From: a virus
UHGV virus genome: UHGV-0171269
Reading direction: 5' to 3' (one strand)
Length of the DNA stretch: 38,485 bases
The notes beneath the pieces are model-generated. The model was given only the letters and a program-made list of their open reading frames with translations, had not been told where the DNA came from and did no database searches. Of the stretch, positions 1 to 38,485 are shown one piece after another. Made by a program: the position numbers and the translations under genes. Every line of letters begins with the position of its first letter. Position 1 is the first letter of the stretch.

Positions 1-243
1 GCCGAGGCTCGCATGTCAAAGCTCTTAGGCGTGCCAGTGCATGTGATCTACTACCGCTCGGAAGAGATCACGGAGATAGACATGAGGGCGGCGACTGGAG
101 AAGGGAGCCTGTTCCCGGCTCGCGTGAGCGTCGAGGGAAGCGTGCCGTTGTACAAACTGGCGGCGCTTGTGAAGGATGCCTTGCCTACCTTAGCCGTTGG
201 AGTGGTGACCTACAACAACCACATGCAACCCTCTATCAACTAA
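1..243 (+). CDS. Hypothetical protein. The frame is open from nt 1 (first ATG at 13) and continues the ORF open at 38402..38485 if the molecule is circular.
   Basis: ORF track 13..243. Codons 1-12 (gcc gag gct cgc) are in the same frame with no stop. GAGG lies 5 nt upstream of the ATG at 13. Confidence 0.45.
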   Translation, partial: AEARMSKLLGVPVHVIYYRSEEITEIDMRAATGEGSLFPARVSVEGSVPLYKLAALVKDALPTLAVGVVTYNNHMQPSIN

Positions 244-279
244 TTATTAACAATCAACGAAACAAGGAGAAAAACGAAA

Positions 280-546
280 ATGAACAAGAAATATATCTAT
301 CGCTGGACGGCCAAAGCGGCCGACTGGTCAACGTACAAAATGTGCTACGAACTGGCAAAGACGGAACGAGGCGCTTTGGTTGCGGCTCATCGTTGGTGCG
401 ACGACAACCTGTTGCACGGCATGGGAGCGGATCACATTGCTATAGTTGAGTGCAAGATTGACGACGGCGACATATCTGGTCCGTGGCAAGAGGTGAGGGC
501 GCAAAGGCGTCGTCCTTACGGTGGACGGTGGATTGAAATCCTCTAA
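280..546 (+). CDS. Hypothetical early protein (88 aa)
   Basis: ORF track. Strong SD AAGGAG at ~263-268 upstream of the ATG at 280. Confidence 0.55.
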   Translation: MNKKYIYRWTAKAADWSTYKMCYELAKTERGALVAAHRWCDDNLLHGMGADHIAIVECKIDDGDISGPWQEVRAQRRRPYGGRWIEIL

Positions 547-560
547 CTTACGAAGGAGCT

Positions 561-752
561 ATGAAAACCGCCGCTATCATCGCGCTTGGAGTTGTAAGCC
601 TAGTAGGCTTTGCCGCTATCATCCGTAGCGTGTGGCTAGACTACACGTACAGACACGCACCGCTGGGCAGTGTGATAGTCATTGCCGTGTCATTGACAGT
701 CATGATCTGCATCACGCTGATGACACTAATCACGCTGGTTATCAACAATTAA
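561..752 (+). CDS. Small membrane protein (63 aa, two hydrophobic segments)
   Basis: ORF track. SD GAAGGAG at 550-556. Hydrophobic composition (AAIIALGVVSLVGFAAII.., VIVIAVSLTVMICITLMTLITLVI). Confidence 0.5.
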   Translation: MKTAAIIALGVVSLVGFAAIIRSVWLDYTYRHAPLGSVIVIAVSLTVMICITLMTLITLVINN

Positions 753-790
753 CAATCAAAAACATTAAACATTTAAAGGAGAAAAGAGAA

Positions 791-1138
791 ATGATGATAA
801 AACTCGTTAACCCCGATTGCGATGCCGCGACGACATGCCGCATCTATGAGTTGCAAGACGGGGAAATAATATTGTCCATTGAGTATGAGACAATTGATAG
901 TATCTCGTTTGTAGGCCTATCTGAGCCTATGAGCGTTGAGGCCGCCATAACCGCGATTAAAAACAACGCACTTGCCGAAATAAAAACAAGCGGAGAAGAG
1001 GGCGAAATCCACAACCTCCCGATGAAACGCTTTGTGGGGCACACCGAAATCGAAGAAGACGGCCTGGAAATCTGCTTGTATTTTCCGAATATGAGCGAGA
1101 AGACCCGCAAGAAGTTCGTGGAAGCATTTAACGATTAA
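791..1138 (+). CDS. Hypothetical protein (115 aa). The start is taken at ATG 791 rather than the track start at 632.
   Basis: AAAGGAGAAAAGAGAA followed by ATGATG at 791. The upstream part of ORF 632..1138 overlaps the membrane-protein gene in another frame. Confidence 0.5.
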   Translation: MMIKLVNPDCDAATTCRIYELQDGEIILSIEYETIDSISFVGLSEPMSVEAAITAIKNNALAEIKTSGEEGEIHNLPMKRFVGHTEIEEDGLEICLYFPNMSEKTRKKFVEAFND

Positions 1139-1150
1139 CAATATACGTAG

Positions 1151-1531
1151 ATGAATTTGGAAATAGATAGATGCGACTTTGAGCGAATCGTCAACGCCTT
1201 TCACTTGATAGACGCCAAAATCAGTGACCGTGAATTCGTCCTAGACACGATATGGAGCATGGTCGAAGGTTCAGACCTAACATTTAACAATTTGGAAGCA
1301 TGTGTCACCTTGTTAGACGTTTACGATGACGTAGAGGAGTTTGCCTATGACAGACTAAGCGACGAAGAAACTAACGAATTGTTAGAAGACGTCGGGTCTA
1401 ATACGCTCCTTAAGATAGCACTGGATAGACTCGTCGATAGGGGAACTATCATGTCTTACAATCTACGAAACGGTGACGCAACTATTATATGTGACCTAAA
1501 CGGTGACGCAACTATTATATGTGACCTCTAA
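1151..1531 (+). CDS. Hypothetical acidic protein (126 aa) ending in a duplicated decapeptide NGDATIICDL x2
   Basis: ORF track. The 3' end contains a perfect 30-bp tandem duplication (1468-1497 and 1498-1527). Confidence 0.5.
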   Translation: MNLEIDRCDFERIVNAFHLIDAKISDREFVLDTIWSMVEGSDLTFNNLEACVTLLDVYDDVEEFAYDRLSDEETNELLEDVGSNTLLKIALDRLVDRGTIMSYNLRNGDATIICDLNGDATIICDL

Positions 1532-1570
1532 CCTCTAACAATCAACAACAAACAACTATAACAAAACGTT

Positions 1571-2227
1571 ATGAATCAATCAACCAAATCAAAAGGAGAA
1601 AAAACCTACGACTACAAGGCAGTCATCATCAGGTCATACAACCCACTACAAACCGAAATCATCGAAGGAGAATCGAAGTCAAAAAACATTAAGTGGGCCG
1701 CAATCGTCGCCGCTAGAGCAATCGCCACGCATAACGACGTGGACGCCTTAATCCTCCTCTACGACGCGAAAACCGGAAAGCACGTACACTCATCACGCCT
1801 CAGAAAGGCATCATGCGCCTCATATCGTGAGCGGATCACTAACCAAGCAAAGTATGCCCGCAAATCGAGAACGCGCGAAATAGAGCGGCTTTATTGCTAT
1901 CTCCCTCGCCCCAAAATCATCACCAAAGCAAGCGGCCACAGAAGGCAAACATACTACGAGATTATCATCAAAGAAATCTACATTGCCAAGTCCGGGAGAC
2001 TGGCAACTAGGGGTATCCCACGCGAGAACCTACCGGAAGCACTAAGAACCGAAGGCAGGCTCGTCCGAGAATCAAATCTCCAGTCAGAACTCGACAGGAT
2101 CATGGCAAACCTCTATTCCCGTAGATCACTGCCCGACCTAGAACAAGCACAAAAGGTCGCAAGCAAATGGCCAAATTATGAACACATCATCAAACTCATC
2201 AAAAGATACTACAGGATAGATTCATAA
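1571..2227 (+). CDS. Hypothetical basic protein (218 aa)
   Basis: ORF track. AAAGGAG-like SD upstream (caaaaggagaaaaaacc is internal; ATG 1571 follows the A/C-rich leader). Confidence 0.5.
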   Translation: MNQSTKSKGEKTYDYKAVIIRSYNPLQTEIIEGESKSKNIKWAAIVAARAIATHNDVDALILLYDAKTGKHVHSSRLRKASCASYRERITNQAKYARKSRTREIERLYCYLPRPKIITKASGHRRQTYYEIIIKEIYIAKSGRLATRGIPRENLPEALRTEGRLVRESNLQSELDRIMANLYSRRSLPDLEQAQKVASKWPNYEHIIKLIKRYYRIDS

Positions 2228-2253
2228 CAGCCTAACAACAAGCATAATACGAA

Positions 2254-2295
2254 AGAGGGCCGCCCGTTCATAACTGGTGGCCCTCTTCTCTTTTC
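2254..2295 (+). terminator. Rho-independent terminator ending the first rightward operon
   Basis: Stem GAGGGCC (2255-2261) pairs with GGCCCTC (2278-2284), followed by TTCTCTTTTCC. Confidence 0.6.
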
Positions 2296-2327
2296 CACGT
2301 CATAATAAATTTTCTGCTTGCAATTCC

Positions 2328-2345
2328 ACAAAAAAAGCTTGACAC
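2328..2345 (+). promoter_or_regulatory. Candidate promoter element ACAAAAAAGCTTGACAC. Related ACAAAAAAGCTTG / TTGACAC boxes recur at 38303-38337.
   Basis: A TTGACA-like -35 box directly downstream of the terminator. No convincing -10 hexamer could be assigned. Confidence 0.25.
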
Positions 2346-2943
2346 TGATTGGCGTTCGGATGAACACGCAGTCTTACTTGAGGTGGGGGGGGTCTGGAGT
2401 CCCCCGAACTGGTCCCGGTCGAGGCTTGAGAGCTAATGAGAGGCAGTCTAGGGGAAATGAGAAGAAGAGTAAAGAAGAAAAAAAATCAGTATTATCTTTC
2501 CGGAGTTTGGATTTGATAGAAGAGGTTGGCGAAATTAAATGGGAATAGGGAAGAGCGAGAGGAATTAGGAATAATACCGATTTTTGGTGGAGGGAGTAGA
2601 GAGTAAGAGAGGCGTGGAAGTAGAGGAGAGGGAGAGGTCGAAGAATTGGTGGAGAGTGGTGGTAAGAGAGGTTGGATGAGGGCAGAAAAGGGAGGAGTAT
2701 GGTTTGGAGGTTTTGGTTGGGAATGACCTGCATGACAGTAGGTTATTTTGGGATTTTGGTGTGTGAAAGATGAGGGCTGTTGATTGGATTTGATGAATTG
2801 TTAGTTGGCTTGGAGGAGTTGAGGCGGCGCCCTTAGTTAAGGGTTTGATAAATGGGATGTTTGGTTGGTTTGAGGAGGGGAAATTGGATGAAACGGCGCC
2901 ATGTTTGATTTTGGAGTTGACGGCTTAGGGAAAAACGTTATAG

Positions 2944-3435
2944 TTGAAAGAAAACAAAGGAGAGCTAGAAATGAAGAAATATGAACTGAGCGCATTTGTA
3001 AACTTTGATAACTGTTTTGAATCCCAATTCCCGGTTGGGGGGGAAGTTGGGGCGTTAAATAGGGTTTATGGTCATTTAAAGGGGATGTGCGCTAGTGGGG
3101 ATGATGTTCTTTTGGGTGTTAGCTTGGTTGAGGGAGGGCATAGGAGGAGTATGGGTGCGACATGTTTCAAATGGGGGTGTGGGGATTGTTTTGATTTGTC
3201 GAGGGGTATTAGTCGGTGTGGTGTTTTGGTGGAAGATATGAGCTACTGCTTTTTAACGTATGTTGCTAATGGGACTAACCCGTTGATTTATGGGATGCAG
3301 TATGTATGGGTTTTTTATAGTGACCGGATTGAGAAGGTGAATAGGATTGTAGCGGATTATTCATTTTCTGATTACCGCTTGCAAGGCTTATGGTTTTTTG
3401 ATGAAGAGCATTGTTTTAAAGATGCTTGTAATTAG
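2944..3435 (+). CDS. Hypothetical Cys/Gly/Val-rich protein (163 aa) with a strongly C-depleted coding strand
   Basis: ORF track. SD AAAGGAGAG at 2957-2965, 6 nt before the ATG at 2971. Codon composition is G/T-rich. Confidence 0.5.
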   Translation: MKENKGELEMKKYELSAFVNFDNCFESQFPVGGEVGALNRVYGHLKGMCASGDDVLLGVSLVEGGHRRSMGATCFKWGCGDCFDLSRGISRCGVLVEDMSYCFLTYVANGTNPLIYGMQYVWVFYSDRIEKVNRIVADYSFSDYRLQGLWFFDEEHCFKDACN

Positions 3436-3467
3436 AAAAAAGAAAAGAAAGAAAGGAAACAATAACA

Positions 3468-4430
3468 ATGGATAAAAAAAGAACGATGCAAAGAAGAAAT
3501 AATAATAATAAAGTAACTTATAGGGTTTTTGTCCTTATAAAATATGAAGATAAGTTGGAAGACTTTTATAAAGAAGAGGCGCTTGCTAGTTATCCTGATG
3601 TTCGTGCATTAGAGGATATGATTAACCGGGTAAAAGAACATGCTATCGATGCTAAGAAAAGAGGTCTTGGCCTAGAGTTCCACATTAGCGAGGAATATGG
3701 TCAGGCGTTTAGAGATATTAAGTTTTCTAAGAACTATTCTGCTGATGAATTGTCGTTGTTGGACCTTGAAAAAGAGTTTGATGTTGGTTCGTATGTTTAT
3801 ATGCACGACATTATTAACCCTATTGGCAGGAGTCGTGGGATTTATTATTTTACATATTCAGGTTCGCTTGAGGGAGCTGAGGAATATATTGAGAGGTCAG
3901 GAATGGACAGCGATCTTACAATCACTATCTCCTATAATTGCGACGCCCTGAGAGGAATGGAGTTTGCCATTGATTCTTTTGCATACACTTTCAAGGATAG
4001 TAATGTAGTTGATTTGAGCAAGTCCGAAGAAAGCCGTGAGAAGGCTCCAGAAGGCCCTAGCGACGCTTTGGAGGACTTTGGTACCAAGGAAGACTTGGAA
4101 ACGCTTCTGGAGGTGATGAGAGGCCTTCGAGACGATGTTAACGGAGAGCTGAATGATTCTTGCGTAGCTGGGGTCCGTTTGGTGAGTGTGAGAGCAGTGG
4201 ATGCTCCGGGAGCGGCCAACTATTTTCGGCGGGCTAGGAAGGACATTGATGAGAGGACAGGATTGGTGAGATTGTCGGAGATAGAGACTAATGAGCTTTT
4301 CGATAAGGAAATAGGAGTTGTTGTTCCCTATCTGTCTTTGAGGGCTTATCTAAAGACCGGAGAAAAGGGGCTGTTCGCGCGTCAAATGGAAAAGGCCCAG
4401 CGCGAAGTGATGAAGGACTTCGAGAAATAA
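3468..4430 (+). CDS. Hypothetical protein (320 aa)
   Basis: ORF track. AAAGGAAACAATAACA ATG context. Coding strand is moderately C-poor. Confidence 0.5.
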   Translation: MDKKRTMQRRNNNNKVTYRVFVLIKYEDKLEDFYKEEALASYPDVRALEDMINRVKEHAIDAKKRGLGLEFHISEEYGQAFRDIKFSKNYSADELSLLDLEKEFDVGSYVYMHDIINPIGRSRGIYYFTYSGSLEGAEEYIERSGMDSDLTITISYNCDALRGMEFAIDSFAYTFKDSNVVDLSKSEESREKAPEGPSDALEDFGTKEDLETLLEVMRGLRDDVNGELNDSCVAGVRLVSVRAVDAPGAANYFRRARKDIDERTGLVRLSEIETNELFDKEIGVVVPYLSLRAYLKTGEKGLFARQMEKAQREVMKDFEK

Positions 4431-4451: not shown

Positions 4452-4503
4452 GCAAAAAAAATCCCCCCGGCAGTTTGTGGTTTTTCTGCCGGGGGGATTT
4501 ATT
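4452..4503. terminator. Bidirectional intrinsic terminator between convergent genes
   Basis: An A8 run, then the perfect stem TCCCCCCGGCAG (4462-4473) paired with CTGCCGGGGGGA (4486-4497) with a T-rich loop, then TTTATT. Confidence 0.7.
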
Positions 4504-5137
4504 ATGCGGTAATTAAGCGGTCCATTGATTCTGCAATGGATTTTATTAGGAGTGATGTTTCGGGGAATGTGGTTGAAATTGCTATGGTTCTTTGCCCGTT
4601 GTCATTTCTTTCTGATAATAGATGTGAAAGATTTGAAATGTTGATATCGTGCAAATTAACGTTTTGTAGGTTATCAATTACAAGGGCTTTTGCTTTGAAT
4701 GCTCTTCTCAGAATTGGTGATTTATTCCGGCTGTGAAAGTCAGTTGCTTCTTTCAACAGGTCAAAGGCTTTAATATAGAAAATGGAATCCCCTTTCTTGT
4801 ATCTGTGTGCAAGCCATGCGCATGCTGATAGAGTCTTGGGCTTGTTAGGCCCGCAAATGAGAATGGACTCTTCTTTCATCTCTTTCCTAATGCGTGAATA
4901 GAGATCAGGCATGGTTTTGACGGTCATTTCTTTGAGCAGGTTAAAATGCTTGAGAGGAATCTTGGCAAGCTGGAGATCAGCTAAAAAGATTTCTCGTTCC
5001 TTCTCCTGCTGGAATTTCCTTTCTTGCTCGATGTATTCCGGGCTAAGGTGATCTACAACGGGAATTCCTAGGGGTATGTTATTAAAATCAAACCCTAGTT
5101 CTTCGAGGATGTCGGAAGCTTTCTTTGGTTCGGACAT
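4502..5137 (-). CDS. Putative AAA+ helicase-loader ATPase (DnaC/DnaI-like)
   Basis: Walker-A-like ILICGPNKPKTLSA and Walker-B-like KALVIDNLQ. Size 211 aa. Sits beside a DnaD-like candidate. Confidence 0.4.
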   Translation of the reverse strand: MSEPKKASDILEELGFDFNNIPLGIPVVDHLSPEYIEQERKFQQEKEREIFLADLQLAKIPLKHFNLLKEMTVKTMPDLYSRIRKEMKEESILICGPNKPKTLSACAWLAHRYKKGDSIFYIKAFDLLKEATDFHSRNKSPILRRAFKAKALVIDNLQNVNLHDINISNLSHLLSERNDNGQRTIAISTTFPETSLLIKSIAESMDRLITA

Positions 5138-5141
5138 GGGA

Positions 5142-5504
5142 TTATAATGTTACCTTTTCATTATCAATATAATAAGCGGTCTCATGCCCGTTATTTTCAC
5201 ATAATATAGTCTTTCCTTCTTTCGAGGCGAGGGCGAACATCTGGTAGAAGTAGGCATTTAGAATTGATTCTGACGGAGATTTATCTTCTCCGAACAAGAA
5301 GGGGGCGACCTTGCGAAGTTCATTCATCTTGCTTACTGAGAGGATGCCAGCACGATATTTAGCCTTGTGCATCACACTTTTAGTCGGGATGATACCTACC
5401 AAGTGCAGAAAGATTTCAATTTTTTCTGGTTCTTCCCGTGCGATCAGCTGGAACTTCTCAATCTCTTCATCTGTATATAGTTTTGTAACTTTCTTCTGTG
5501 GCAT
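5142..5504 (-). CDS. Hypothetical protein, possibly a replisome organiser (DnaD-like). The ATG start at 5504 is preferred over the track's TTG start at 5543.
   Basis: The track ORF 5142..5543 begins at a TTG. The first ATG (MPQKKVTK..) gives 120 aa. A TTGTTT-N16-TATGCT box lies just upstream on the minus strand, suggesting a short leader. Confidence 0.35.
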   Translation of the reverse strand: MPQKKVTKLYTDEEIEKFQLIAREEPEKIEIFLHLVGIIPTKSVMHKAKYRAGILSVSKMNELRKVAPFLFGEDKSPSESILNAYFYQMFALASKEGKTILCENNGHETAYYIDNEKVTL

Positions 5505-5597
5505 GGGCGCACTATAGCATAGAGGCCATGTGAAAAAAAACAAAAATCTATTGACTGCGGCATGAAAAATGGCATAATAATCGCATCACTTAGGTGA
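5505..5597. promoter_or_regulatory. Divergent promoter region. The plus-strand promoter is TTGACT (5551-5556), a 17-nt spacer, then ATAATA (5574-5579). A candidate minus-strand promoter is TTGTTT-N16-TATGCT.
   Basis: A near-consensus sigma-70/sigma-A promoter precedes SD AGGTGA and the ATG at 5598. Confidence 0.55.
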
Positions 5598-8119: not shown

Positions 8120-8959
8120 ATGGCTAAGAATAAACTTGTAGTTCCTTTTTTGAAATGGGTTGGAGGAAAAAGACAACTTATTCCAGAAATTAGAAAGATG
8201 TTACCCAAAGGGGTAGCGAATCGTCCCTACTATGAGCCATTCATCGGAGGCGGAGCTTTATTTTTTGAACTCCAGCCAAAACAAGCAGTTATAAATGATT
8301 ATAACGAAGAGTTGATCAATGTTTATACGGTTATAAGGGACAACCACAATGAACTTATTGAGGATTTAAAGAAACATAAAAATACGTCAGAGTATTTTTA
8401 TGAAATTCGCTCTATGGATAGGCAACCTCTTTTTAAAAATCTTACCACTATCGAGCGAGCATCACGAATTATATATCTCAATAAAACTTGCTATAATGGA
8501 TTATATCGGGTTAATAATGCCGGGGAATTTAATTCTCCATTTGGAAAATATAAAAATCCAAATATTGTCAATGAGCCTGTGATTAAGGAGGTAAGTAAAT
8601 ATTTAAATTCTGGTCGGATTCAAATATCAAATGGTGATTATGAGGTAATTTTGAGAGATATACCAACAAACTCATTTGTGTATTTAGATCCTCCGTATCA
8701 TCCTATTTCAGAGAGTTCTAATTTTACAGGATACGTGCAGGGTGGATGGAGTGAGAGGGATCAGCTTAGGCTAAGAGATGTTTGTAATAGATTAAATAGC
8801 AATGGCATAAAATTTCTCCTATCAAATTCTGCATCTAATTTCATAAAAGAAATTTATGCGGAATACAATATTCATGTAGTACAGGCAAGTCGTGCTATAA
8901 ATTCAGATTCTTCTAAAAGAGGGCAAGTTGATGAATTTTTAATTAGCAATTATGAGTAA
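8120..8959 (+). CDS. dam: DNA N6-adenine methyltransferase (Dam/D12-class)
   Basis: LDPPYHP catalytic motif (DPPY) and the N-terminal FxGGG-like VGGKRQL / PFIGGGALFF SAM-binding region. 279 aa. Confidence 0.8.
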   Translation: MAKNKLVVPFLKWVGGKRQLIPEIRKMLPKGVANRPYYEPFIGGGALFFELQPKQAVINDYNEELINVYTVIRDNHNELIEDLKKHKNTSEYFYEIRSMDRQPLFKNLTTIERASRIIYLNKTCYNGLYRVNNAGEFNSPFGKYKNPNIVNEPVIKEVSKYLNSGRIQISNGDYEVILRDIPTNSFVYLDPPYHPISESSNFTGYVQGGWSERDQLRLRDVCNRLNSNGIKFLLSNSASNFIKEIYAEYNIHVVQASRAINSDSSKRGQVDEFLISNYE

Positions 8960-10393: not shown

Positions 10394-10633
10394 ATGAGTA
10401 TAACCAAAGATAGAGTTTGGAAACTGAGTAAAAGGACATTCAGGAAAACAACCAATGAGATGCACCACTTATACAACAATAGAGGTATATATTGGATATC
10501 TCTAACGTTTGAATCCATTGATGATTTATCAGAACGCAGACGAATCAATCTTAAAACGGATAACAAAGAAGAAGCAATCAGGCTTAGGGATAAAATCTTA
10601 AACGATCTGAAAGGAAGATGGATAAAATTATGA
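10394..10633 (+). CDS. Hypothetical basic protein (79 aa). The start is taken at MSITKD rather than the track start at 10349.
   Basis: AAAGAAAAGAAT ATG context. The track's 10349 start would overlap the upstream small ORF. Confidence 0.4.
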   Translation: MSITKDRVWKLSKRTFRKTTNEMHHLYNNRGIYWISLTFESIDDLSERRRINLKTDNKEEAIRLRDKILNDLKGRWIKL

Positions 10634-11868
10634 ATACTCCAAAACGCAAGCCGGGAAGACCTCCAATGAGAAAGGTAACTCCACCAAATGGGAGGATGAC
10701 GAATATGACCCTGACGAAGTATGATACGTGGCGAATTCGAGCTTGTGATGTTGATGAATATGTATCTAATTCTCACCAAAACAAGCCAATGTGTAACAAT
10801 GCAGGCTCTTATGTCTTAGATCTTGAAATGCCAGAACGCCCTCGTCTCATTTCCTTGTTTTCCGGATGTGGTGGAATGGATTTAGGTTTCAAGAAGGCGG
10901 GATTTGATATTGTTTTTGCGAACGATTTTGATTCAGATGCTCAAGCGATATACTCGCTCAATTTGGGCAATATAGATCGGCGTGACATATTGTCAGTTGG
11001 CGAAGATGAAATTCCAGATGGAGATATTCTTACTGCGGGATTCCCGTGCCAGCCGTTCTCTAATGCCGGAAATCGTAAAGGTGTCCACGATTCTCGTGGC
11101 ATGCTATATAAAGAATGTTTACGTATTATTCGAAAGAAGATGCCGAAGGTAATTGTTTTTGAGAATGTTAAGGGATTGCTTTCAACGAAATATATTGATG
11201 GACGCAACTTAGCAGAAGTCATAGTAGAAGATCTGTCCAGCATGAATGGCATTGGATACAATGTTGTGCATCAACTTGTAAACGCATCAGACTATGGCGT
11301 TCCTCAGAATCGTCAGAGAGTTTTGTTTGTTGGTGTACGCAAGGATTTAGGAATCACATTTGAGTTTCCTAAAAAGCAATGTAAAGATAATTTGACATTA
11401 CGGCATATTCTAAACGTACCGTCTGAAGTAGCTAACAATGTAGACTGGTCCCTTTCTCCGCAGGCTTTGGATATGATTAAATATATTCCTGAGGGCGGCT
11501 CGTGGAAAGATGTTCCGTATGAGCATTTAGCCCCTCGTTTCCAAAGAATCAGAGATAATATGAAGAAGTATCATTCGCCTAACTTCTATCGGCGTTTTTC
11601 GAGAGATGAAATTTGCGGAACTATGACAGCATCTGCTCAGCCGGAGAATTGCGGTATTATACATCCCTATGAGGACAGAAGATTTACTGTTCGAGAAGTT
11701 GCACGTATTCAAACCTTCCCCGATGATTTTAACTTCTTAACGGATACAGCACGAAATATAACCGCAATGTATAAAGTCATAGGAAATGCTGTTCCGGTTA
11801 CATTAGCATATAATATTGCTTCTGCAATAATGGAGCAAGTGTTCAAGAAAAATGGAAGCGAAAAGTAA
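10618..11868 (+). CDS. dcm: DNA (cytosine-5)-methyltransferase with a basic N-terminal extension
   Basis: Motif I FSGCGGMDLGF, motif IV GFPCQPFS (PCQ), ENV motif (VFENVKG), C-terminal target-recognition and motif-X region. 416 aa. Confidence 0.85.
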   Translation: MDKIMNTPKRKPGRPPMRKVTPPNGRMTNMTLTKYDTWRIRACDVDEYVSNSHQNKPMCNNAGSYVLDLEMPERPRLISLFSGCGGMDLGFKKAGFDIVFANDFDSDAQAIYSLNLGNIDRRDILSVGEDEIPDGDILTAGFPCQPFSNAGNRKGVHDSRGMLYKECLRIIRKKMPKVIVFENVKGLLSTKYIDGRNLAEVIVEDLSSMNGIGYNVVHQLVNASDYGVPQNRQRVLFVGVRKDLGITFEFPKKQCKDNLTLRHILNVPSEVANNVDWSLSPQALDMIKYIPEGGSWKDVPYEHLAPRFQRIRDNMKKYHSPNFYRRFSRDEICGTMTASAQPENCGIIHPYEDRRFTVREVARIQTFPDDFNFLTDTARNITAMYKVIGNAVPVTLAYNIASAIMEQVFKKNGSEK

Positions 11869-13024: not shown

Positions 13025-13529
13025 ATATCTCTCCGATGAGCCTACCGAATGCTATCCCATTTCCTATGCTCATCATGTGCCCTTCGTCCTTCATGTGGCC
13101 TAGATCAAAATCTATGAAGTCTAATCGCTTGGGAGGATAAACATTCACAAGGCCCTGCCAGTCCTCGCAACAGTAAACATAGTAATCTGTAATGCCTTCC
13201 GAGAAGAACTGATACTTCATCTTGTCCATGACATTGACGGCAAAAGGGCTTCTCCCGTTGGTAGCGATAGTCTTCTTGTAGTCGCTATCAGCCTTTTCAG
13301 TAAGGCGAAATCTAACCACCATTCCAACATTGCTATCGGCAAAGGTCTTGAACTTCTTCCGATTCTCATCCTCATCATAGCCCAGCCGGGAATATTTCGC
13401 CCTGAAATATCTAGGGTTGAGAGTCTTTAAGAATGTTTCGCAAGTGTTTTTAATCAGAACGTTAGAATGAACCATTGTGATTAGTCTAACGTCTTCCTCT
13501 GGATAACACCAACCAGCGATGACTCTCAT
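12942..13529 (-). CDS. Hypothetical protein (195 aa) at the end of the late/lysis arm
   Basis: ORF track. The start overlaps the amidase stop (ATGA). Confidence 0.45.
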   Translation of the reverse strand: MRVIAGWCYPEEDVRLITMVHSNVLIKNTCETFLKTLNPRYFRAKYSRLGYDEDENRKKFKTFADSNVGMVVRFRLTEKADSDYKKTIATNGRSPFAVNVMDKMKYQFFSEGITDYYVYCCEDWQGLVNVYPPKRLDFIDFDLGHMKDEGHMMSIGNGIAFGRLIGEIFNDCACFLDKGHLVDSKTFPLPSSPEY

Positions 13530-14110
13530 CCTTTACAGTAATCTTCCACTCCTAGAGCGATAGAATTAGCGATACTCTCCGGGTGGTGTTTCATCACGTC
13601 TGCATCTCCGGGATTAGTAATGAACCCGCACTCGCAAAGCACCCACACTGGTTTTGTCTTTTTCAGGATTGCAAGATTAGAGCGCTCCTGAATAGCATCA
13701 GCTCTCCCCGGTAAAATGCCAGTCAGATACTCCGCAATACATTGAGCGAGCTTGCGCCCACGGGAAGAGCTTGGGAAAAAGCACACATGGGCACCGTGTG
13801 GGACTGGATTAGGAATAGTGATAATCTCGATCAGCTTGTTTTCATCTACTTCTCTCCTTTTCTTCTGCGCGGAATCGCAATGGATACTGATGCCGAAGTC
13901 ATAGCCGCCAGAATTAGCCGCACGGATAGTAGCATTAAGGTCTCCCGTATTGCTCATGTCGGGGAAGTCAATAACATGGACGTCATGGCCTTTGTCCTTC
14001 AACTCAGTAAACAGGTGGTCCACGATTGAAGTGGCTATGGCATGCTCCTCAAATCCATTCCCACGCGCTCCAGTTCCGCGAGCGTGTCCAATATCAAGCG
14101 CTATTTTCAT
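13526..14110 (-). CDS. N-acetylmuramoyl-L-alanine amidase (Amidase_3-type endolysin)
   Basis: MKIALDIGHARGTGARGNG.. and ISIHCDSA motifs typical of the Zn-dependent Amidase_3 / CwlA family. Confidence 0.7.
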   Translation of the reverse strand: MKIALDIGHARGTGARGNGFEEHAIATSIVDHLFTELKDKGHDVHVIDFPDMSNTGDLNATIRAANSGGYDFGISIHCDSAQKKRREVDENKLIEIITIPNPVPHGAHVCFFPSSSRGRKLAQCIAEYLTGILPGRADAIQERSNLAILKKTKPVWVLCECGFITNPGDADVMKHHPESIANSIALGVEDYCKG

Positions 14111-14379: not shown

Positions 14380-14532
14380 TTAGCTTTCCTGTAAATATAT
14401 AGCGAAACTTAAAAAAAGGGTACATATGAAAGCCGTCGCCGCCGAATTAGTATCACCGCATAGAACAATGATAATAGAAATGATAGCTCCTAATACTAGG
14501 GCCATTCTGGACAGATAGAGAAATTGTTTCAT
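14380..14532 (-). CDS. Small membrane peptide (50 aa), not in the ORF track
   Basis: A TGATG overlap with the upstream gene. MKQFLYLSRMALVLGAIISIIIVLCGDTNSAATAFICTLFLSFAIYLQES. Confidence 0.3.
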   Translation of the reverse strand: MKQFLYLSRMALVLGAIISIIIVLCGDTNSAATAFICTLFLSFAIYLQES

Positions 14533-14780
14533 CGGGTAATCTTCCTCTCAATAAGTTCCACGCGCACAGACAGAAGCTGGATAGCCTTGGCCGTGTCCAC
14601 TTGGGCCTGCGTCTGCATGGACATAAGGCTACATAAGCGGTCGTTGTAGTTGTTCATGACGTAGCCTATGTACCAGCAGGCGCCCCCACAAATCGCCATA
14701 GACAAAATCAGGCAAGCATACATGGGGGAAGCTTTAGCAAGCTCAAGGAATCTGGCAGGAACTTCTGATATCTTGCACAT
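14529..14780 (-). CDS. Single-pass membrane protein (83 aa), candidate holin or spanin
   Basis: Hydrophobic segment MYACLILSMAICGGACWYIGYVM and a C-terminal coiled-coil-like region. Adjacent to the endolysin. Confidence 0.4.
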   Translation of the reverse strand: MCKISEVPARFLELAKASPMYACLILSMAICGGACWYIGYVMNNYNDRLCSLMSMQTQAQVDTAKAIQLLSVRVELIERKITR

Positions 14781-16130: not shown

Positions 16131-16140
16131 GGGGGGGGGG
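16131..16140. repeat. G10 homopolymer (C10 on the transcribed minus strand)
   Basis: Read directly. Between the tail-fibre stop (16171) and the next start (16112). Confidence 0.9.
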
Positions 16141-30440: not shown

Positions 30441-31433
30441 TTAGTAAACCATTTGAGTTCCGGTCACATCAACCTTGAGGACGCCCTTGTCTTCAATGCG
30501 GGTGCAACCCATAGCAAGCTCCGTGTAGGTCTGCCACACGTACTGCTTGTCGCGGCGCTCATCAATGCGTACGAACAGTTCTTCCAGTACGCCAAAGGCC
30601 ACGGAGTTCATGCTGAACGCAATACAGGTGCGAACGTTTGGCGTGGAAGCGCCTTTCGTCGGATCAGTAGACGTTCCCAGCGGACGAGAGCCGAACGGAA
30701 GCATTCCCGGAGACATGGCAACGAACCTAATGCCGAGGTAATCAAAGATGTTACCAGACACCAGCGGGCGGTCCACGTTGTACAAGATGCTTGCAACCTT
30801 TTCCTGAGAAAGCAAGTCCTTAAGCTCTTCATGAGAGATGAGCATGATGATTTCCGGGCCGCCCAAGTCCTGACGGTCCACGTCCTGACCAAGCACGTTC
30901 CGGGAACCGAAGATGTTACGAACTTGAAGAAGCTTCTCAAGCGTCAAGCCGGAAGCGGTGTACGTCCCGGAAGGATTGTACCCAACAGGAATCGTATTCA
31001 AAGTTTCGTTGAAAGGAACGGCAACGTCCCCATTCTCCCCAGTCCATGCAGTACCGATCAAGCCGTTAACTGCGATGTGGTCACGACGACGTGCCATTTC
31101 CATGCGTTCAGCCTGAACGATGCGAGGAATCGGAGATTCAATCGTTCCCGCCTGCATCATTTCAATGCGGCTGATTTCATGCGTGGTCTTGAACGGCGTG
31201 GTCTTCAACCAGCGAACGTTGAAGTTAGCCTGCTGAGGGTTGGTATCGCCGTACAGGTCGGTAATCTCCTGAGAGTTCACCGGATCAATGATCTGGAACC
31301 TGCGCTGGCGCGAAGCAAGCGGATACACACGCAGATAACGTTCAGTTCGTGAAGTCATCTGCTGGACACCCGCATAGATTGAAGGCGTGTATTCATTTAC
31401 CGCCAAATCATAAAAGTTTCCGTAATTAGCCAT
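30441..31433 (-). CDS. Major capsid protein (330 aa)
   Basis: Size, MANYGNF.. N-terminus, and position after the scaffold gene. No SD-like sequence within 20 nt of the start. Confidence 0.55.
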   Translation of the reverse strand: MANYGNFYDLAVNEYTPSIYAGVQQMTSRTERYLRVYPLASRQRRFQIIDPVNSQEITDLYGDTNPQQANFNVRWLKTTPFKTTHEISRIEMMQAGTIESPIPRIVQAERMEMARRRDHIAVNGLIGTAWTGENGDVAVPFNETLNTIPVGYNPSGTYTASGLTLEKLLQVRNIFGSRNVLGQDVDRQDLGGPEIIMLISHEELKDLLSQEKVASILYNVDRPLVSGNIFDYLGIRFVAMSPGMLPFGSRPLGTSTDPTKGASTPNVRTCIAFSMNSVAFGVLEELFVRIDERRDKQYVWQTYTELAMGCTRIEDKGVLKVDVTGTQMVY

Positions 31434-31602: not shown

Positions 31603-31641
31603 CAACAAAAAACCCCGCACTAATAAAAATATTAGTGCGGG
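31603..31641 (-). terminator. Minus-strand intrinsic terminator-like hairpin in the capsid leader
   Basis: Stem CCCGCACTAATA / TATTAGTGCGGG with an AAAA loop. On the minus strand it is followed by TTTTTTGTTG. Confidence 0.55.
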
Positions 31642-31730
31642 TAAAACAAAGAAGAAATAACAATGAACTATAGAATGGCGCGTCCTTTCACAAGGAGACC
31701 CACATGTGTTACTACGTATTGCTTAATATT

Positions 31731-31776
31731 TCAATAAAGAAACCTTCCTCCGCATCAATTAAAACACGGAGGAAGG
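31731..31776 (-). terminator. Second minus-strand hairpin, a terminator or RNA-processing candidate
   Basis: Stem CCTTCCTCCG / CGGAGGAAGG (10 bp) with a 14-nt loop. On the minus strand it is followed by TTTCTTTATTG. Confidence 0.45.
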
Positions 31777-34680: not shown

Positions 34681-34965
34681 TTATTGACCTAATGCGCTTT
34701 TGCCACTTACCCCGCTACCTGCCCCCAAGGCGTTCTTGCTCGCAACAAAGGTTCCTCCAAAGGAACTACGGCGCCTGTTCTCACGTATCTTGTTCTCCGT
34801 GCCAGACGTATCGACTGTTACCTCATTCACTGGCTTCTCAGGAGCAGGAGCATCCATCCCCTCCTTGTTCTGCTTCAAGCCTAATACGCCTCCAACGATA
34901 TTAGTAACACCTTTGAACACGCCGCTAATAGCGTTGCCTATCTCTTTAAACGGATTGCCGCCCAT
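34681..34965 (-). CDS. Small Gly-rich protein (94 aa)
   Basis: ORF track. Stop 1 nt before the portal start. Confidence 0.4.
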   Translation of the reverse strand: MGGNPFKEIGNAISGVFKGVTNIVGGVLGLKQNKEGMDAPAPEKPVNEVTVDTSGTENKIRENRRRSSFGGTFVASKNALGAGSGVSGKSALGQ

Positions 34966-35380
34966 GATTTTTTCCCTTTCCTAATAATTTAATTAGCAAT
35001 TCAACTTCTTTTCTCCCGTACAGATACACATTCCCCGCACGAAAGCCAATAAAATATTTCATCCTCTCCTCTTTTATCATCCATCTTAACAACACTCTAA
35101 AATCTCCAACCCCTAAATAAAAGAAGAACCCATTCGCATCATGACGGCTACATGATAACGAAGGAACGCACGCCTGCTTCACCCTAGACCAGCATTCCTC
35201 CACATCAGCCCACCCATCTTCCATCCTAAAGAAATGCCCCATCACAAGGCATCTATCATCCCATCGCCGATATAAATAACGATGCTCCTCCCAAGACGCA
35301 TCAAAATCCGCGCCTAAAGCTTTCAGGACCGCGCGCCCCTCCTCTCCTAGACATGAGGCCTTCATAGTTGTTTCTATCAA
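34946..35380 (-). CDS. Hypothetical protein (144 aa) overlapping the 3' end of the terminase gene. Start uncertain.
   Basis: ORF track. Overlaps the TerL C-terminus by 80 nt, so an internal start may be the true one. Confidence 0.3.
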   Translation of the reverse strand: MIETTMKASCLGEEGRAVLKALGADFDASWEEHRYLYRRWDDRCLVMGHFFRMEDGWADVEECWSRVKQACVPSLSCSRHDANGFFFYLGVGDFRVLLRWMIKEERMKYFIGFRAGNVYLYGRKEVELLIKLLGKGKNHGRQSV

Positions 35381-36920
35381 TATTTAAATTGCTAAAGTTC
35401 CGGCCAAAGCTCTTCTTTACATGCGTCTCTCCTCCTCCACTTACATTCCCAAGCAAACCAGCCATCCGAGCCTCAGCTATGTATCTCAACGAATCACTCC
35501 AATGCGACGAACTATCATGCACGATCTCGTTCTTATAGGCCCCATTCTCTCCAAGCGCTGGCTTCATCCTGTAGCTTAACCAATACGGATAAGCCTTCTC
35601 CGTCCCCCCTATATCAAATCTCAATAAAGGGAACATCCCTAGCAAGTAATTGATACTTATCCATTTATCTCTTATTCTAGGCAAGCATACTATCCCCGGC
35701 AACCCAGCCTGTTGCCACATGTACGCCTGACTTAAACCCGTATCCGTCGTGTACCCAGCATCATGCGGAAATATGTTCCGCATCAAGGTAGGAAATCTAC
35801 TCAACAACCGAGCCGTCCTCTGCGCCGGACCCTCACTGCTATATTGGCCGCAATCGCTATCAACTATCCATATCAACCCCTCCTTCAACTGGAACACCGT
35901 CGAAACCGTATTCAACGGATTCCCCAAGTCCCATGTCGCATAACACGGCAATGTCGGATCATATGGCGCATGCAAAAAATGACCATCCCTCATCGACGCC
36001 TCAAGAACTTCCTCCAATATCGCACCTTCCATCGGCACCTCAAACGCCTCGTCAAGCGTAGAAGGGTATTCCTCGTTCATCGATAAGCCATGTTGCCTCT
36101 TCGCCTTCTGCCACCAAACCTTCTGCCTGTCTTCCAAGTCGATCCCATATTTCGCCTTCAACGTCGTAAAGTAACTCTTCGTACTCTCCGTCAACGGCTC
36201 ATCATCATCACTAACATTGCTCTCATCTTCCCACCACGGCAAAAATACAACGTTAAAGTCCTTCTCCCCCCTATGCCCCTCTTCTATCGATAACGCATTC
36301 ATCACGTTCTCATAGAATATCCCCTTCTTCCCCCCTCTTACTGTCGTCTCAACAAAAATAAATCCATCCTTCGCCGCAGGAAACGTCGCATTCACTATCT
36401 CCGCCGCCCTCTTCGGCTCCGTCGCACTTATCGTTCCCAACTCCGATATGTGCGCAAACCCCAAACCACTGCCCCTAAAGTATTTACCACCAACTATACG
36501 GCTCGACTTCCTACCAACCATCTCCACCGTAATCATCTTGTTGTTAAATTCCATCTTAAACAACCAAGGCAATTTCCTCCTCAAACTCTCCAACGCAACC
36601 CTCACTATCTCCCTCAACTTCTCCTCAGCATCAGGTTGCGTCCTGTCAACCAACGCCAATAACCACCCCTCATTAAACGCCGCCATGTCCGCCATCATCA
36701 CACCAATACACGTACTACACCCCTGACGACGCGACTTCGGCACCAAAAACCTCTTCTTCCCCCTCAAATAACACTCCTCATGCAACCTACGCTGGAATTC
36801 CCTAGGCTCATATCTAATCACTCGACCATCCGTCAACTTGATCTCATACAAGTTGCTCAGCCTCCACATAGGGTCTTTCAACCTTTCCAATAACAATCTC
36901 TTCTCTTCCGAACTTAACAT
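35301..36920 (-). CDS. Terminase large subunit (539 aa)
   Basis: Walker-A-like VPKSRRQGCST, acidic FLPWWEDE, a C-terminal nuclease-like region. Sits before the portal. Confidence 0.7.
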   Translation of the reverse strand: MLSSEEKRLLLERLKDPMWRLSNLYEIKLTDGRVIRYEPREFQRRLHEECYLRGKKRFLVPKSRRQGCSTCIGVMMADMAAFNEGWLLALVDRTQPDAEEKLREIVRVALESLRRKLPWLFKMEFNNKMITVEMVGRKSSRIVGGKYFRGSGLGFAHISELGTISATEPKRAAEIVNATFPAAKDGFIFVETTVRGGKKGIFYENVMNALSIEEGHRGEKDFNVVFLPWWEDESNVSDDDEPLTESTKSYFTTLKAKYGIDLEDRQKVWWQKAKRQHGLSMNEEYPSTLDEAFEVPMEGAILEEVLEASMRDGHFLHAPYDPTLPCYATWDLGNPLNTVSTVFQLKEGLIWIVDSDCGQYSSEGPAQRTARLLSRFPTLMRNIFPHDAGYTTDTGLSQAYMWQQAGLPGIVCLPRIRDKWISINYLLGMFPLLRFDIGGTEKAYPYWLSYRMKPALGENGAYKNEIVHDSSSHWSDSLRYIAEARMAGLLGNVSGGGETHVKKSFGRNFSNLNIDRNNYEGLMSRRGGARGPESFRRGF

Positions 36921-36939
36921 ATCAACCCCTAATCCTTTA

Positions 36940-37437
36940 CTATCTAACTATCTCTCTCATCTCAAACTCAACCGCCTGCCAGTCAACATTAACGTGCGGA
37001 CCAATCGCCTCTTTGCTCATAAATTTCCACGCAAACAACACCAAATCTGTACTATCCCTACCTCCATACTTCTTATACAACCACCTAGCCTTCCCCTTAA
37101 TCCGGTACTTCGTCCTGCTCCGCAATACATAAAACTTACACGTCTCCTCTCCATCAACCACATCATCCCCAGCAGAAACCCCAGCAGGCCTAATCCCATT
37201 CAGGTTCTCAACTCCCCTCAGCTTAGAACCCTCATAAACCAATTTATATTTCTTACTCAAATACCTCTTCTTCTCTTCCAATTTCCCGTCCCTCTCGTAT
37301 ATGTCATACGCCCTCCTAACATTCAAACTACATCTCCCGTACTTCTTCCACCCCATCAGCAAGTAATACAACTCCTGCTCAAATTTCCTAACTCCCTTCC
37401 CCTCTACCTCCAACCGCGCCTCATTACTTATCCCCAT
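36940..37437 (-). CDS. Candidate terminase small subunit (165 aa)
   Basis: Lies directly upstream of TerL. K/R/G/E/Y-rich with almost no CCN or CAN codons, giving a G-free plus strand. Confidence 0.35.
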   Translation of the reverse strand: MGISNEARLEVEGKGVRKFEQELYYLLMGWKKYGRCSLNVRRAYDIYERDGKLEEKKRYLSKKYKLVYEGSKLRGVENLNGIRPAGVSAGDDVVDGEETCKFYVLRSRTKYRIKGKARWLYKKYGGRDSTDLVLFAWKFMSKEAIGPHVNVDWQAVEFEMREIVR

Positions 37438-37924
37438 AATTCCCCCCTTTCAACAATTCACTAAGCTCACTCCCCATCTCCTCTTCACTACCCCCTCCAT
37501 TCCCAAGCCATCCCTTCATCCTTATAAACATGCTCAACGCCTGCAACTGGTCCTTCCCACTCACTCCTTCCCCCCTACCCATCTTACTCAACAACCGCTC
37601 CACCTCTCCCCTACTCAACACACCAACTTCTCCATCATCCACTAAATCCATACCCAGCTCCTCCTTCAACATCTCTAACAACTCCCCCTCATTCCTCCTC
37701 ATACCATCCTCAAAATATTCATCTCTCTCCCCTAACAAATCTGTACTAATCTCACCATAGCTCTTCCTCCCCAACAACACCAACAACATTCCTCTCAACT
37801 CCACCATCCCTACCTTCAACCCATAACCAAGCCTCTCTAACTCCTTCTCCCTCTCTTCACTCTCATCACACTCCAACAACCAGACAATATGCCTCTCAAG
37901 CTCTTCCGATAATTCTTCTCTCAT
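37424..37924 (-). CDS. Glu/Leu/Gly-rich low-complexity protein (166 aa), the first gene of the leftward arm
   Basis: ORF track. Extremely C-depleted coding strand. Confidence 0.35.
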   Translation of the reverse strand: MREELSEELERHIVWLLECDESEEREKELERLGYGLKVGMVELRGMLLVLLGRKSYGEISTDLLGERDEYFEDGMRRNEGELLEMLKEELGMDLVDDGEVGVLSRGEVERLLSKMGRGEGVSGKDQLQALSMFIRMKGWLGNGGGSEEEMGSELSELLKGGNYGDK

Positions 37925-38211
37925 CTCAAAAACATATATAAATCATCCTCTCATCATTGTCTATGCTTTTTTCCCATAAAGCCCCAACACAACAAAACTA
38001 CAAATCCTCTCCTATACTCTACATATACTATACTCCATCTCTTTTCTCAGATTTTTCTTACACGAGGTACCCTTCTTCGTGCGCTTGACGCCGCCGCCGC
38101 TTTTCTCCCGCCGGCCCCCTCGAGACCCCCTCCAGTGGTCCCCCTAGGGGTGGGGTTATCGTCTCGGCTACGCTAAGAGGGGTGAGCTGGAGAGGTCGAG
38201 CGTCAGGCATT

Positions 38212-38401: not shown

Positions 38402-38485
38402 ATGAAAGTGACCATTAACAAACTAGCATCAAAGCGCCTCTTAGAGGCATTTGCCAAAGTCGGAGCTTGCAGGACCGAGGAGCAA
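38402..38485 (+). CDS. 5' part of an ORF that runs off the window end and matches the frame of 1..243
   Basis: ATG 38402 followed by 28 sense codons to the window end with no stop. No SD upstream, so the start is uncertain. Confidence 0.3.
   Translation, partial: MKVTINKLASKRLLEAFAKVGACRTEEQ

Follow-up and report, generated by a model that had tools for sequence, protein, structure and literature searches.

Why should one strand of a viral genome run for about half a kilobase with next to no cytosine, in a place where no gene is apparent? UHGV virus genome UHGV-0171269, analyzed here as a window of 38,485 nt, raises this question at positions 2296-2943 of its plus strand, which a first-pass annotation had described as a nearly C-free, G/A-rich non-coding tract and a candidate R-loop or G-quadruplex origin or long non-coding RNA. 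We analyzed this C-poor tract within the window and in relatives of the same phage family, which are IMG/VR contigs labeled L002 and so on. What emerges is a family-wide, distance-graded, C-free ramp at the starts of two divergent operons, one running rightward (from about 2445) and the other leftward (from about 38063). The flagged tract is no isolated non-coding oddity but the tip of a design rule that spans the genome in this phage family.

The near-absence of C on the plus strand is indeed exceptional. Base counts in 2445-2943 (499 nt) are A147, C30, G189, and T133, where a binomial expectation would give about 118 C, and only 0.08% of plus-strand 499-nt windows are this low in C, every one of them overlapping the tract. 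GC skew reaches +0.64 to +0.76 in 300-nt windows; among nine unrelated or remote control phage loci, the absolute skew is at most 0.31 (500-nt windows). The landmarks first reported all lie where they were placed (TTGACAC at 2339-2345, a G8 run at 2385-2392, CCCCC at 2401-2405, and 2 C in 2581-2640). The limits of the tract had to be redrawn at both ends: the C-poor stretch is real, but it begins at about 2445, since 2296-2444 is ordinary in composition, and it does not end at 2943, since the decay continues through 2971-4430. Nor does the tract stand alone, as a minus-strand stretch between 38063 and about 32000 is more C-poor still, and protein-coding.

The impression that the tract lacks a credible open reading frame (ORF) was borne out. 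The frames of at least 60 amino acids (76 on the plus strand and 119 on the minus strand) are truncated in L002 and missing in L006, and no coding frame is conserved among the six related genomes compared, where indels of 1 nt and 2 nt and a 103-nt deletion (L006) break the frame. These observations support a non-coding tract. Judged by its composition (about 6% C, purine- and G-rich), the lack of a conserved ORF, and the frame-breaking indels, 2445-2970 on the plus strand is a putative untranslated leader of about 525 nt belonging to the phage middle operon, and the steepest part of the compositional ramp. The C-poor bias carries over into the next gene, as the annotation had remarked: in the ORF at 2971-3435 (plus strand; 154 amino acids, with an ATG preceded by AGGAG), the fractions of C at the first, second, and third codon positions (C1/C2/C3) are 0.08/0.10/0.10. 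The second ORF, at 3468-4430 (plus strand, 320 amino acids), carries the tail of the gradient, with a C3 of 0.16 and a GC skew of +0.24 to +0.36.

A skew profile of the whole window reveals a second, stronger C-poor zone of opposite sign, which lies on the minus strand, beginning at 38063 and fading by about 32000, and falls to a minimum of 12 C per 499 nt. In 600-nt windows the plus-strand skew is -0.82 at 37201-37800, then -0.60 and -0.51, and about -0.4 over 34801-36000. The jump in skew is located at GTGTAAGAAA, where a putative C-poor untranslated leader of the packaging (late) operon begins (37925-38063, minus strand). Four intact genes with extreme sense-strand C-depletion follow in 34946-37924 on the same strand (37424-37924, 36940-37437, the large terminase gene terL at 35301-36920, and 34946-35380). 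Across the first three, C3 rises from 0.02 to 0.07 and 0.11, while the corresponding fraction of G (G3) is 0.57, 0.51, and 0.48; the fourth ORF lies outside the codon table. The identity of TerL was confirmed by tblastn against known terminases, and a portal gene follows. Because this mirror tract spans intact genes, sense-strand C-depletion is compatible with coding and is no mark of a non-coding origin. Contig L002 joins position 38485 to position 1, so the window is a closed circle in which the two C-poor zones diverge from a 2.9-kb central region holding the early genes (13-2227).

The relatives show how regular this arrangement is. They comprise 19 IMG/VR contigs whose TerL is 63-100% identical, 14 of which have fetched DNA that spans the start of the late operon. 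All 14 show an abrupt rise in skew, from about 0 to +0.8-0.9, and a nearly linear return to baseline over the next 6 kb or so. Clades differ in how far upstream of terL this start lies (1.0-2.7 kb), and the jump is only a few nt away from a conserved -10-like box (GTGTAAT/GTGTAAG), itself 3' of a GC-rich CCTAGG element. Plotted against distance from the start, C content follows one curve across clades that have different genes at those distances. TerL orthologues that begin 1.0-1.2 kb from the onset have a third-position GC skew of 0.63, vs. 0.36 for those beginning at 2.4-2.7 kb (r = -0.98, a correlation that phylogenetically represents just two or three independent lineages). The fall in depletion follows distance from the start, not gene identity. 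On the middle-operon side, some relatives have C-run/G-run elements, the box TAATGAGAGG (TAATGAGAG in L019), and a purine-rich leader, with a shorter range that is clear in L015 and weak in L019; the leaders of these distant relatives are also shorter, at about 115 nt and 100 nt, respectively. At least five independent samples or assemblies yielded contigs with the C-poor pattern. No comparable skew was found in the nearest cultured TerL relative (Ralstonia phage Cimandef), one Akkermansia phage, or seven remote loci (maximum absolute skew 0.31).

Cytosine is replaced mainly by purines. Family means over the first 500 nt are A 0.32-0.43, C 0.04, G 0.37-0.46, and T 0.15-0.17, compared to about 0.25 each downstream; the sense strand has thus lost C about 6-fold and T about 1.6-fold, A and G have been gained, and G+C is not lowered. 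Depletion extends to all three codon positions of the first late gene (C1/C2/C3 of 0.05/0.02/0.02), and codon choice in the C-poor genes favors AGR over CGN and TTR over CTN, with a G3 of 0.48-0.57. The pressure on these genes acts at the level of nucleotides. A sense-strand purine excess throughout the genome, with a baseline sense skew of about +0.05 to +0.2, recalls Szybalski's rule, or purine loading. The ordinary form of that bias is mild and uniform, in contrast to a ramp that reaches +0.8 to +0.9, begins abruptly, and is graded by distance.

Both onsets coincide with promoter-like elements, and both zones extend in the direction of transcription. The proposal that an operon terminator precedes the flagged tract is plausible: a hairpin at 2251-2290 (-25.6 kcal/mol) is followed by T-rich TTCTCTTTTCC, forming a predicted intrinsic terminator (2251-2295, plus strand) that would close the early operon and is invariant in six related genomes. 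Next comes a conserved control region of ordinary composition (2296-2444, plus strand), nearly invariant in the same six genomes. It contains TTGACAC, a G8-N8-C5 hairpin at 2385-2405, a promoter-like pair CTGGTC-N17-GCTAAT at 2409-2437, and a TAATGAGAGG box at 2434-2443; the last recurs where the equivalent tract begins in the distant relative L015, and TAATGAGAG occupies that place in L019. Of the suggestion that the tract follows a promoter, the conserved boxes stand, although a simple consensus scan for sigma-70 promoters called none at 2296-2444. These elements would place a transcription start near 2445. The corresponding region upstream of the late operon (38064-38200, minus strand) is a conserved GC-rich control element, alignable across all clades, which contains the perfect palindrome CCCCTAGGGG at 38141-38150. 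Its CCTAGG core is invariant, and the palindrome is probably a regulator-binding site. A structured RNA in this element was considered and rejected, as the consensus fold is weak (-5.2 kcal/mol), with little covariation and no Rfam match.

What might a C-free operon start be good for? Rho loads onto unstructured RNA that is rich in C and poor in G, binding YC dinucleotides, and RNA polymerase tends to pause when the 3' end of the RNA is a pyrimidine. In the phage, none of the 80-nt windows in the leader 2445-2970 has C>G, and YC occurs 1.5 times per 80 nt; in the first 3 kb of the late unit there are again no windows with C>G, and YC ranges from 0.7 to 4.9 per 80 nt. Other sense regions outside the C-poor zones have C>G fractions of about 0.2-0.45 (0.70 in the dnaC-like unit) and 6-10 YC per 80 nt. 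The Rho literature likewise describes recognition of C>G-biased, cytidine-rich RNA through YC-binding clefts (PMC12360218; PMC13650167, PMC6797219).

The leader is also weakly structured. It folds less stably than 99-100% of its dinucleotide shuffles, with z-scores of +1.9 (whole leader) and +2.1, the first 250 nt at -0.087 kcal/mol per nt, and a minimum free energy per nt in the first kb that is about half the downstream value. No Rfam family matches it, even at E = 1, and the close relatives are too alike for a covariation test. These results do not support the structured non-coding RNA that the annotation had offered as its second option. The leader has the properties of an RNA refractory to Rho, being untranslated as far as its frames indicate, weakly structured, with C<G throughout and few YC; had it contained C, it would have been an ideal Rho substrate.

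The depletion begins where operons do, is confined to the sense strand, extends in the direction of transcription, affects C far more than U, and is accompanied by weak structure. We therefore propose, tentatively, that the ramp could be a distributed anti-rut composition (the inverse of a Rho-utilization, or rut, site) that keeps Rho and pyrimidine-dependent pausing off naked promoter-proximal RNA. The ramp would then act on the nascent transcript. Naked RNA, the working ground of Rho, would consist of the long untranslated leader plus whatever is made before the leading ribosome catches the polymerase, and removing C, and to a lesser degree U, would hide it, providing a cis-encoded, factor-independent guard against premature termination and polarity. 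Both the cost of termination and the length of naked RNA would drop with distance from the promoter, and a distance-dependent gradient could result. We infer the involvement of Rho, and this explanation of the gradient, from sequence properties. In its fuller form, about which we are more hesitant by a shade, the proposal is that uncultured T7-like gut podoviruses without an RNA polymerase of their own may guard their host-transcribed operons by keeping the first 6 kb or so of each, terminase included, almost free of C, so that Rho, or some other C-dependent host factor, would not engage the nascent RNA ahead of the ribosomes; this would amount to antitermination or immune evasion encoded in cis, needing no factor and readable from raw sequence, and functional R-loops might form in addition.

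Known systems offer partial parallels. Rut sites and Rho-sensitive long 5' leaders (lambda tR1; mgtA, corA, rpoS) are also unstructured, untranslated, promoter-proximal RNAs in which the C:G balance is decisive for Rho loading, and a long untranslated leader is a classical target of Rho. The phage tract is inverted in sign, with no C>G window and almost no YC, and is a graded zone of 2-6 kb running through genes rather than a site of about 80 nt. Phage processive antitermination (lambda N/nut and Q, HK022 put RNA, P4 Psu) would share the proposed purpose of carrying polymerase through long operons without Rho-dependent termination. Those systems use a discrete RNA or protein that acts on polymerase or on Rho, whereas protection here would be spread over composition, in a unit that ends at intrinsic terminators. 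The first late unit closes with two such predicted terminators in tandem (31614-31776, minus strand), with 14-bp and 12-bp stems followed by T-runs, 6.3-6.45 kb from the late start and just upstream of the major head gene (30441-31433). Because these are ordinary intrinsic terminators, probably no processive antitermination system covers the first late unit, and no discrete RNA element of the antitermination type was found in Rfam searches or in the consensus fold of the late control element. With these terminators, the late region appears to fall into two units, one for packaging and one structural.

Several observations weigh against a Rho-directed ramp. The gradient ends at about 5.7-6 kb both in clades with a 6.3-kb first late unit (the window) and in those with an 8.0-kb unit (L015), an equality that a pure polarity-cost model did not foresee; a cost scaled to unit length, judged by the positions of the terminators, was rejected for this reason. 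G is enriched and not just C removed, which a model based on R-loops or hybrid stability predicts more directly. Rut-like RNA is not avoided everywhere, as the early operon directly upstream has C>G in 45% of windows. The plus strand also remains G-rich past the terminator of the middle unit and through the oppositely oriented dnaC-like gene, which could point to an effect on the DNA strand. Selection on thousands of sites of small effect is demanding, and the literature we searched held no published precedent for evasion of Rho by bulk composition. Finally, the host is hinted at solely by Akkermansia-like lysis genes, and both its Rho and the transcripts are presumed.

If the proposal is right, phages can beat host surveillance of foreign transcripts without an antiterminator gene, by the spelling of their genes alone, under a pressure strong enough to alter the amino-acid content of conserved proteins. 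An abrupt jump in skew followed by linear decay would then be a sequence-only marker of transcription starts, and of the extent of Rho-exposed RNA, in uncultured phages. The ramp as such is undescribed: no account of this pattern was found in the literature on phage GC skew, C-poor transcripts and Rho, purine loading, or ddhCTP. The underlying principle is known, both for compositional determinants of Rho action and for R-loop formation.

R-loop formation is the basis of the alternative that survives best, which widens the idea of the first-pass annotation to both tracts. Purine- and G-rich RNA would remain hybridized behind the polymerase, and the resulting pair of divergent R-loops would serve to prime or license either replication or recombination, the latter through the phage's exonuclease and annealing-protein genes; on the displaced strand, the host helicase would be loaded by the DnaC-like protein. 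We consider this chain of events, taken whole, rather unlikely, with a good deal to recommend it. Of RNA:DNA hybrids, those that pair a purine-rich RNA with a pyrimidine-rich DNA template are the most stable class. In a nearest-neighbor estimate of hybrid vs. duplex stability, 2401-2700 on the plus strand and 37201-37800 on the minus strand are the most hybrid-favorable in the genome, the former from composition alone. Sense skews of +0.6 to +0.9 with 38-49% G fall in the range of known R-loop elongation zones, and the fading from the 5' end outward would fit a structure that begins near the promoter and extends variably. Both tracts diverge from a shared control region, and the G-enrichment that runs on through the antisense gene is readily accommodated. 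The idea is moreover compatible with the anti-rut proposal, as an RNA that Rho cannot bind is also one that Rho cannot strip from an R-loop.

The details fit less well. The tract had been called dense in GG and GGG runs, which is no more than its composition predicts, with 14 runs of at least three G (15.5 expected) and 2 of at least four (5.6 expected; equally few in 4% of shuffles). Bulk G density of the elongation-zone type is present in the leader, but a G-cluster initiation zone of the QmRLFS type is not. Taking as a G-quadruplex either four G-tracts of at least 3 G with short loops or a G4Hunter score above 1.5, we found no canonical motif in 2445-2943, where G4Hunter peaks at 1.32; only the upstream G8 run (2373-2400) exceeds the threshold, at 1.6. 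The order of bases in the leader is less hybrid-favorable than in shuffles of the same bases (z = +2.3). Hybrid energetics would predict that U is avoided most and C is about neutral, whereas C is depleted far more than T. In most relatives the first 250 nt are A-rich, and the equivalent leaders of distant relatives (50-55% A, 31% G) are, on composition, poor material for R-loop initiation. Leader length is not conserved either, given the 103-nt deletion in L006 and the leaders of about 115 and 100 nt in L015 and L019, and the late tract would put a kilobase-scale R-loop over terS, terL, and their neighbors.

A replication origin at the flagged tract is likewise not supported. No iterons or tandem repeats of the kind that mark origins were found here or elsewhere, and the same composition, in stronger form, covers the terS-like genes, terL, and neighboring genes on the other strand in every assessable relative; the composition therefore belongs to operon starts rather than to a non-coding origin. 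The annotation had also argued from the absence of a polymerase or primase. None was recognized among the scanned ORFs, nor was a dedicated replication initiator or an RNA polymerase, which would suit priming by transcription, though the argument for a transcription-primed origin is circumstantial, as is the presence of a DnaC-like gene. Transcription-primed origins (ColE1 RNA II, T4 oriF/oriG, mitochondrial conserved sequence block II) do resemble the tracts, whose onsets are promoter-like, in having a promoter and a G-rich non-template strand whose composition favors a hybrid. The GC-skewed R-loop zones of CpG-island promoters and immunoglobulin switch regions likewise place a G-rich non-template strand after a promoter, with skew that peaks just downstream of the start and decays over kilobases (PMC3787257). 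Both groups differ from the phage tracts, which have no G clusters or G-quadruplex motifs, have mostly A-rich leaders, are depleted of C more than U, cover essential genes, and have no known origin function, RNase H site, or primosome site. Were the tracts R-loop formers after all, they would be the longest natural R-loop zones described in bacteria or phages, and a possible means of replication for phages that lack an initiator.

A different C- or pyrimidine-dependent threat could also be what the transcripts evade. Candidates include toxin or abortive-infection RNases with C-containing sites, such as MazF-type enzymes (ACA) and MqsR (GCU), the chain terminators ddhCTP and ddhUTP made by prokaryotic viperins, and late scarcity of CTP and UTP; a hit at the 5' end would cost the whole operon. 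This polarity logic extends to chain terminators and to decay triggered at the 5' end, and C is indeed lost much more than U, on the sense strand only, from the operon start, and in a position-dependent manner. We nonetheless judge such a threat improbable as the cause: no specific C-containing motif is missing beyond the depletion of C itself, most of the 25-kb late region is unprotected, its most highly expressed genes included, and the enrichment of G is left unexplained. The papers on viperin and ddhCTP that we found in the literature do not tie them to transcript composition.

The smoothness of the gradient would by itself suggest a mutational footprint, in which the sense strand, exposed as single-stranded DNA (displaced during replication, or as the non-template strand under heavy transcription), would gather strand-specific damage that fades with distance, as happens in vertebrate mitochondrial DNA or close to mammalian promoters. 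The gradient is independent of genes and of equal length in all clades, the signs of skew on the two sides are those expected from a bidirectional origin between 38063 and 2445, and the skew persists through the antisense dnaC-like gene. Deamination, however, predicts that T should rise and G+C fall, and we observed T at 0.15-0.17, G doubled, and G+C not falling. C has been lost from first and second codon positions as well, down to a C2 of 0.02 in the first late gene. Among polarized singletons in six close genomes (96-98% identical), C-to-T changes number 2 per 299 C (0.007) in the tract vs. 31 per 1512 C (0.021) in the control region, and the per-site loss of C is 0.020 vs. 0.030. We know of no polymerase or repair bias that replaces pyrimidines with purines on one strand. 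With T depleted and no C-to-T excess, we reject this explanation as the main cause despite the smooth distance dependence, and regard it as very unlikely. The strand-asymmetry gradient of vertebrate mitochondrial DNA is similar in being monotonic, gene-independent, confined to one strand, and anchored at a fixed point. There, C-to-T and A-to-G changes produce a strand rich in G+T; the phage strand is rich in G+A, with T depleted, G+C not reduced, and no excess of C-to-T. C-to-T hypermutation or a bisulfite-like artifact was rejected on the same compositional and singleton evidence, and also because ORFs are intact and the pattern recurs across the independent samples or assemblies.

Least likely of all is a discrete element within 2296-2943, be it a G-quadruplex, a non-coding RNA with a defined fold, or a protein sponge of the CsrA- or ribosome-binding type, for which one can cite the near-invariance of 2385-2585 among six genomes, the G8-N8-C5 hairpin above 1.5 in G4Hunter, and a mild enrichment of GAGG (z = 2.1), set against genomes that are 94-98% identical overall, so that this conservation equals background, no Rfam match at E <= 1, folding weaker than shuffles, no canonical G-quadruplex inside the tract, GGA, A.GGA, and Shine-Dalgarno-like motifs at shuffle expectation, and a G8 run that lies upstream of the C-poor zone and has its equivalents on the opposite strand in distant relatives. 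YC-context motifs in the leader were also at expectation, no 5-mer or 6-mer stands out, and a search for polar 7-mers across four diverged tracts found none beyond coding-type enrichments (no array of the Chi, KOPS, or SRS type). Motif hypotheses, namely a Shine-Dalgarno sponge, a CsrA GGA sponge, YC context, and Chi- or KOPS-like polar words, were dropped, as none of these motifs is enriched. Two further ideas about the leader failed. One was that it is a decayed paralogue of the ORF after it; the best local match, at 30 bits vs. 28.4 for the best shuffle, is not significant. Nor is the leader more conserved than its flanks: it is kept in close relatives at no more than the background level, and the low protein identities of 58-75% stem from indels.

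The two ORFs that follow the leader are changeable. The first, 2971-3435, has no family match and an in-frame 174-nt deletion in L006; its substitutions by codon position number 7/10/9, with no third-position excess, and it is probably coding. The second, 3468-4430, has 35 homologues in phage contigs of 34-37 kb, none of them annotated, and occurs in variants with large indels. Large in-frame deletions and insertions in 2971-4430 (L006, L034, L035, L036), among genomes with 94-98% identity, indicate that these are either very plastic accessory genes or weakly constrained sequences. The unit appears to end at a bidirectional terminator hairpin (4452-4507) that separates it from the convergent dnaC-like unit, with 22-nt arms that are 91% complementary (-34.2 kcal/mol) and A-run and T-run flanks.

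Other parts of the window differ from the ramps in composition. The early operon (13-2227, plus strand) is the opposite, being A- and C-rich with a C3 of up to 0.39; with C>G in 45% of 80-nt windows, it is compositionally the most rut-like RNA of the plus strand, and the minus-strand dnaC-like unit (4502-5543) is higher, at 70% on its sense strand. Within ORF 1151-1531 of the early region there is a perfect 30-nt tandem duplication at 1468-1527, which repeats the peptide NGDATIICDL.

Long G homopolymers in the window are the G8 run at 2385-2392 and a G10 run at 16131-16140. Paired runs of G7-G10, 4-17 nt apart, lie about 850 nt upstream of the late-operon start in L007, L008, L010-L012, L014, L015, and L019. 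Even near-identical genomes differ in the lengths of these runs, which could therefore be promoter elements prone to slippage. Contigs of several relatives end at G/C homopolymer runs and thereby mimic genome termini. Genome ends at the tract starts, as in strand displacement of the phi29 or adenovirus kind or resection by an exonuclease, were rejected because the contigs that end there stop at these homopolymers, other contigs read through the control region, and resection would leave the opposite strand exposed.

The structural genes form a T7-like module that encodes a portal, tubular tail proteins A and B, a major head protein, and large internal proteins. A search of 185,579 species genomes found no prophage copy. 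The endolysin (Amidase_3) and a neighboring gene (13526-14110 and 14529-14780) share 57-65% amino-acid identity with Akkermansia phage DTMo-2021a, which is otherwise unrelated and has no skew ramp; this likeness of lysis genes is the only hint of a host. The window also encodes two predicted methyltransferases, a Dam-like N6-adenine type and a C5-cytosine type (8120-8959 and 10618-11868).

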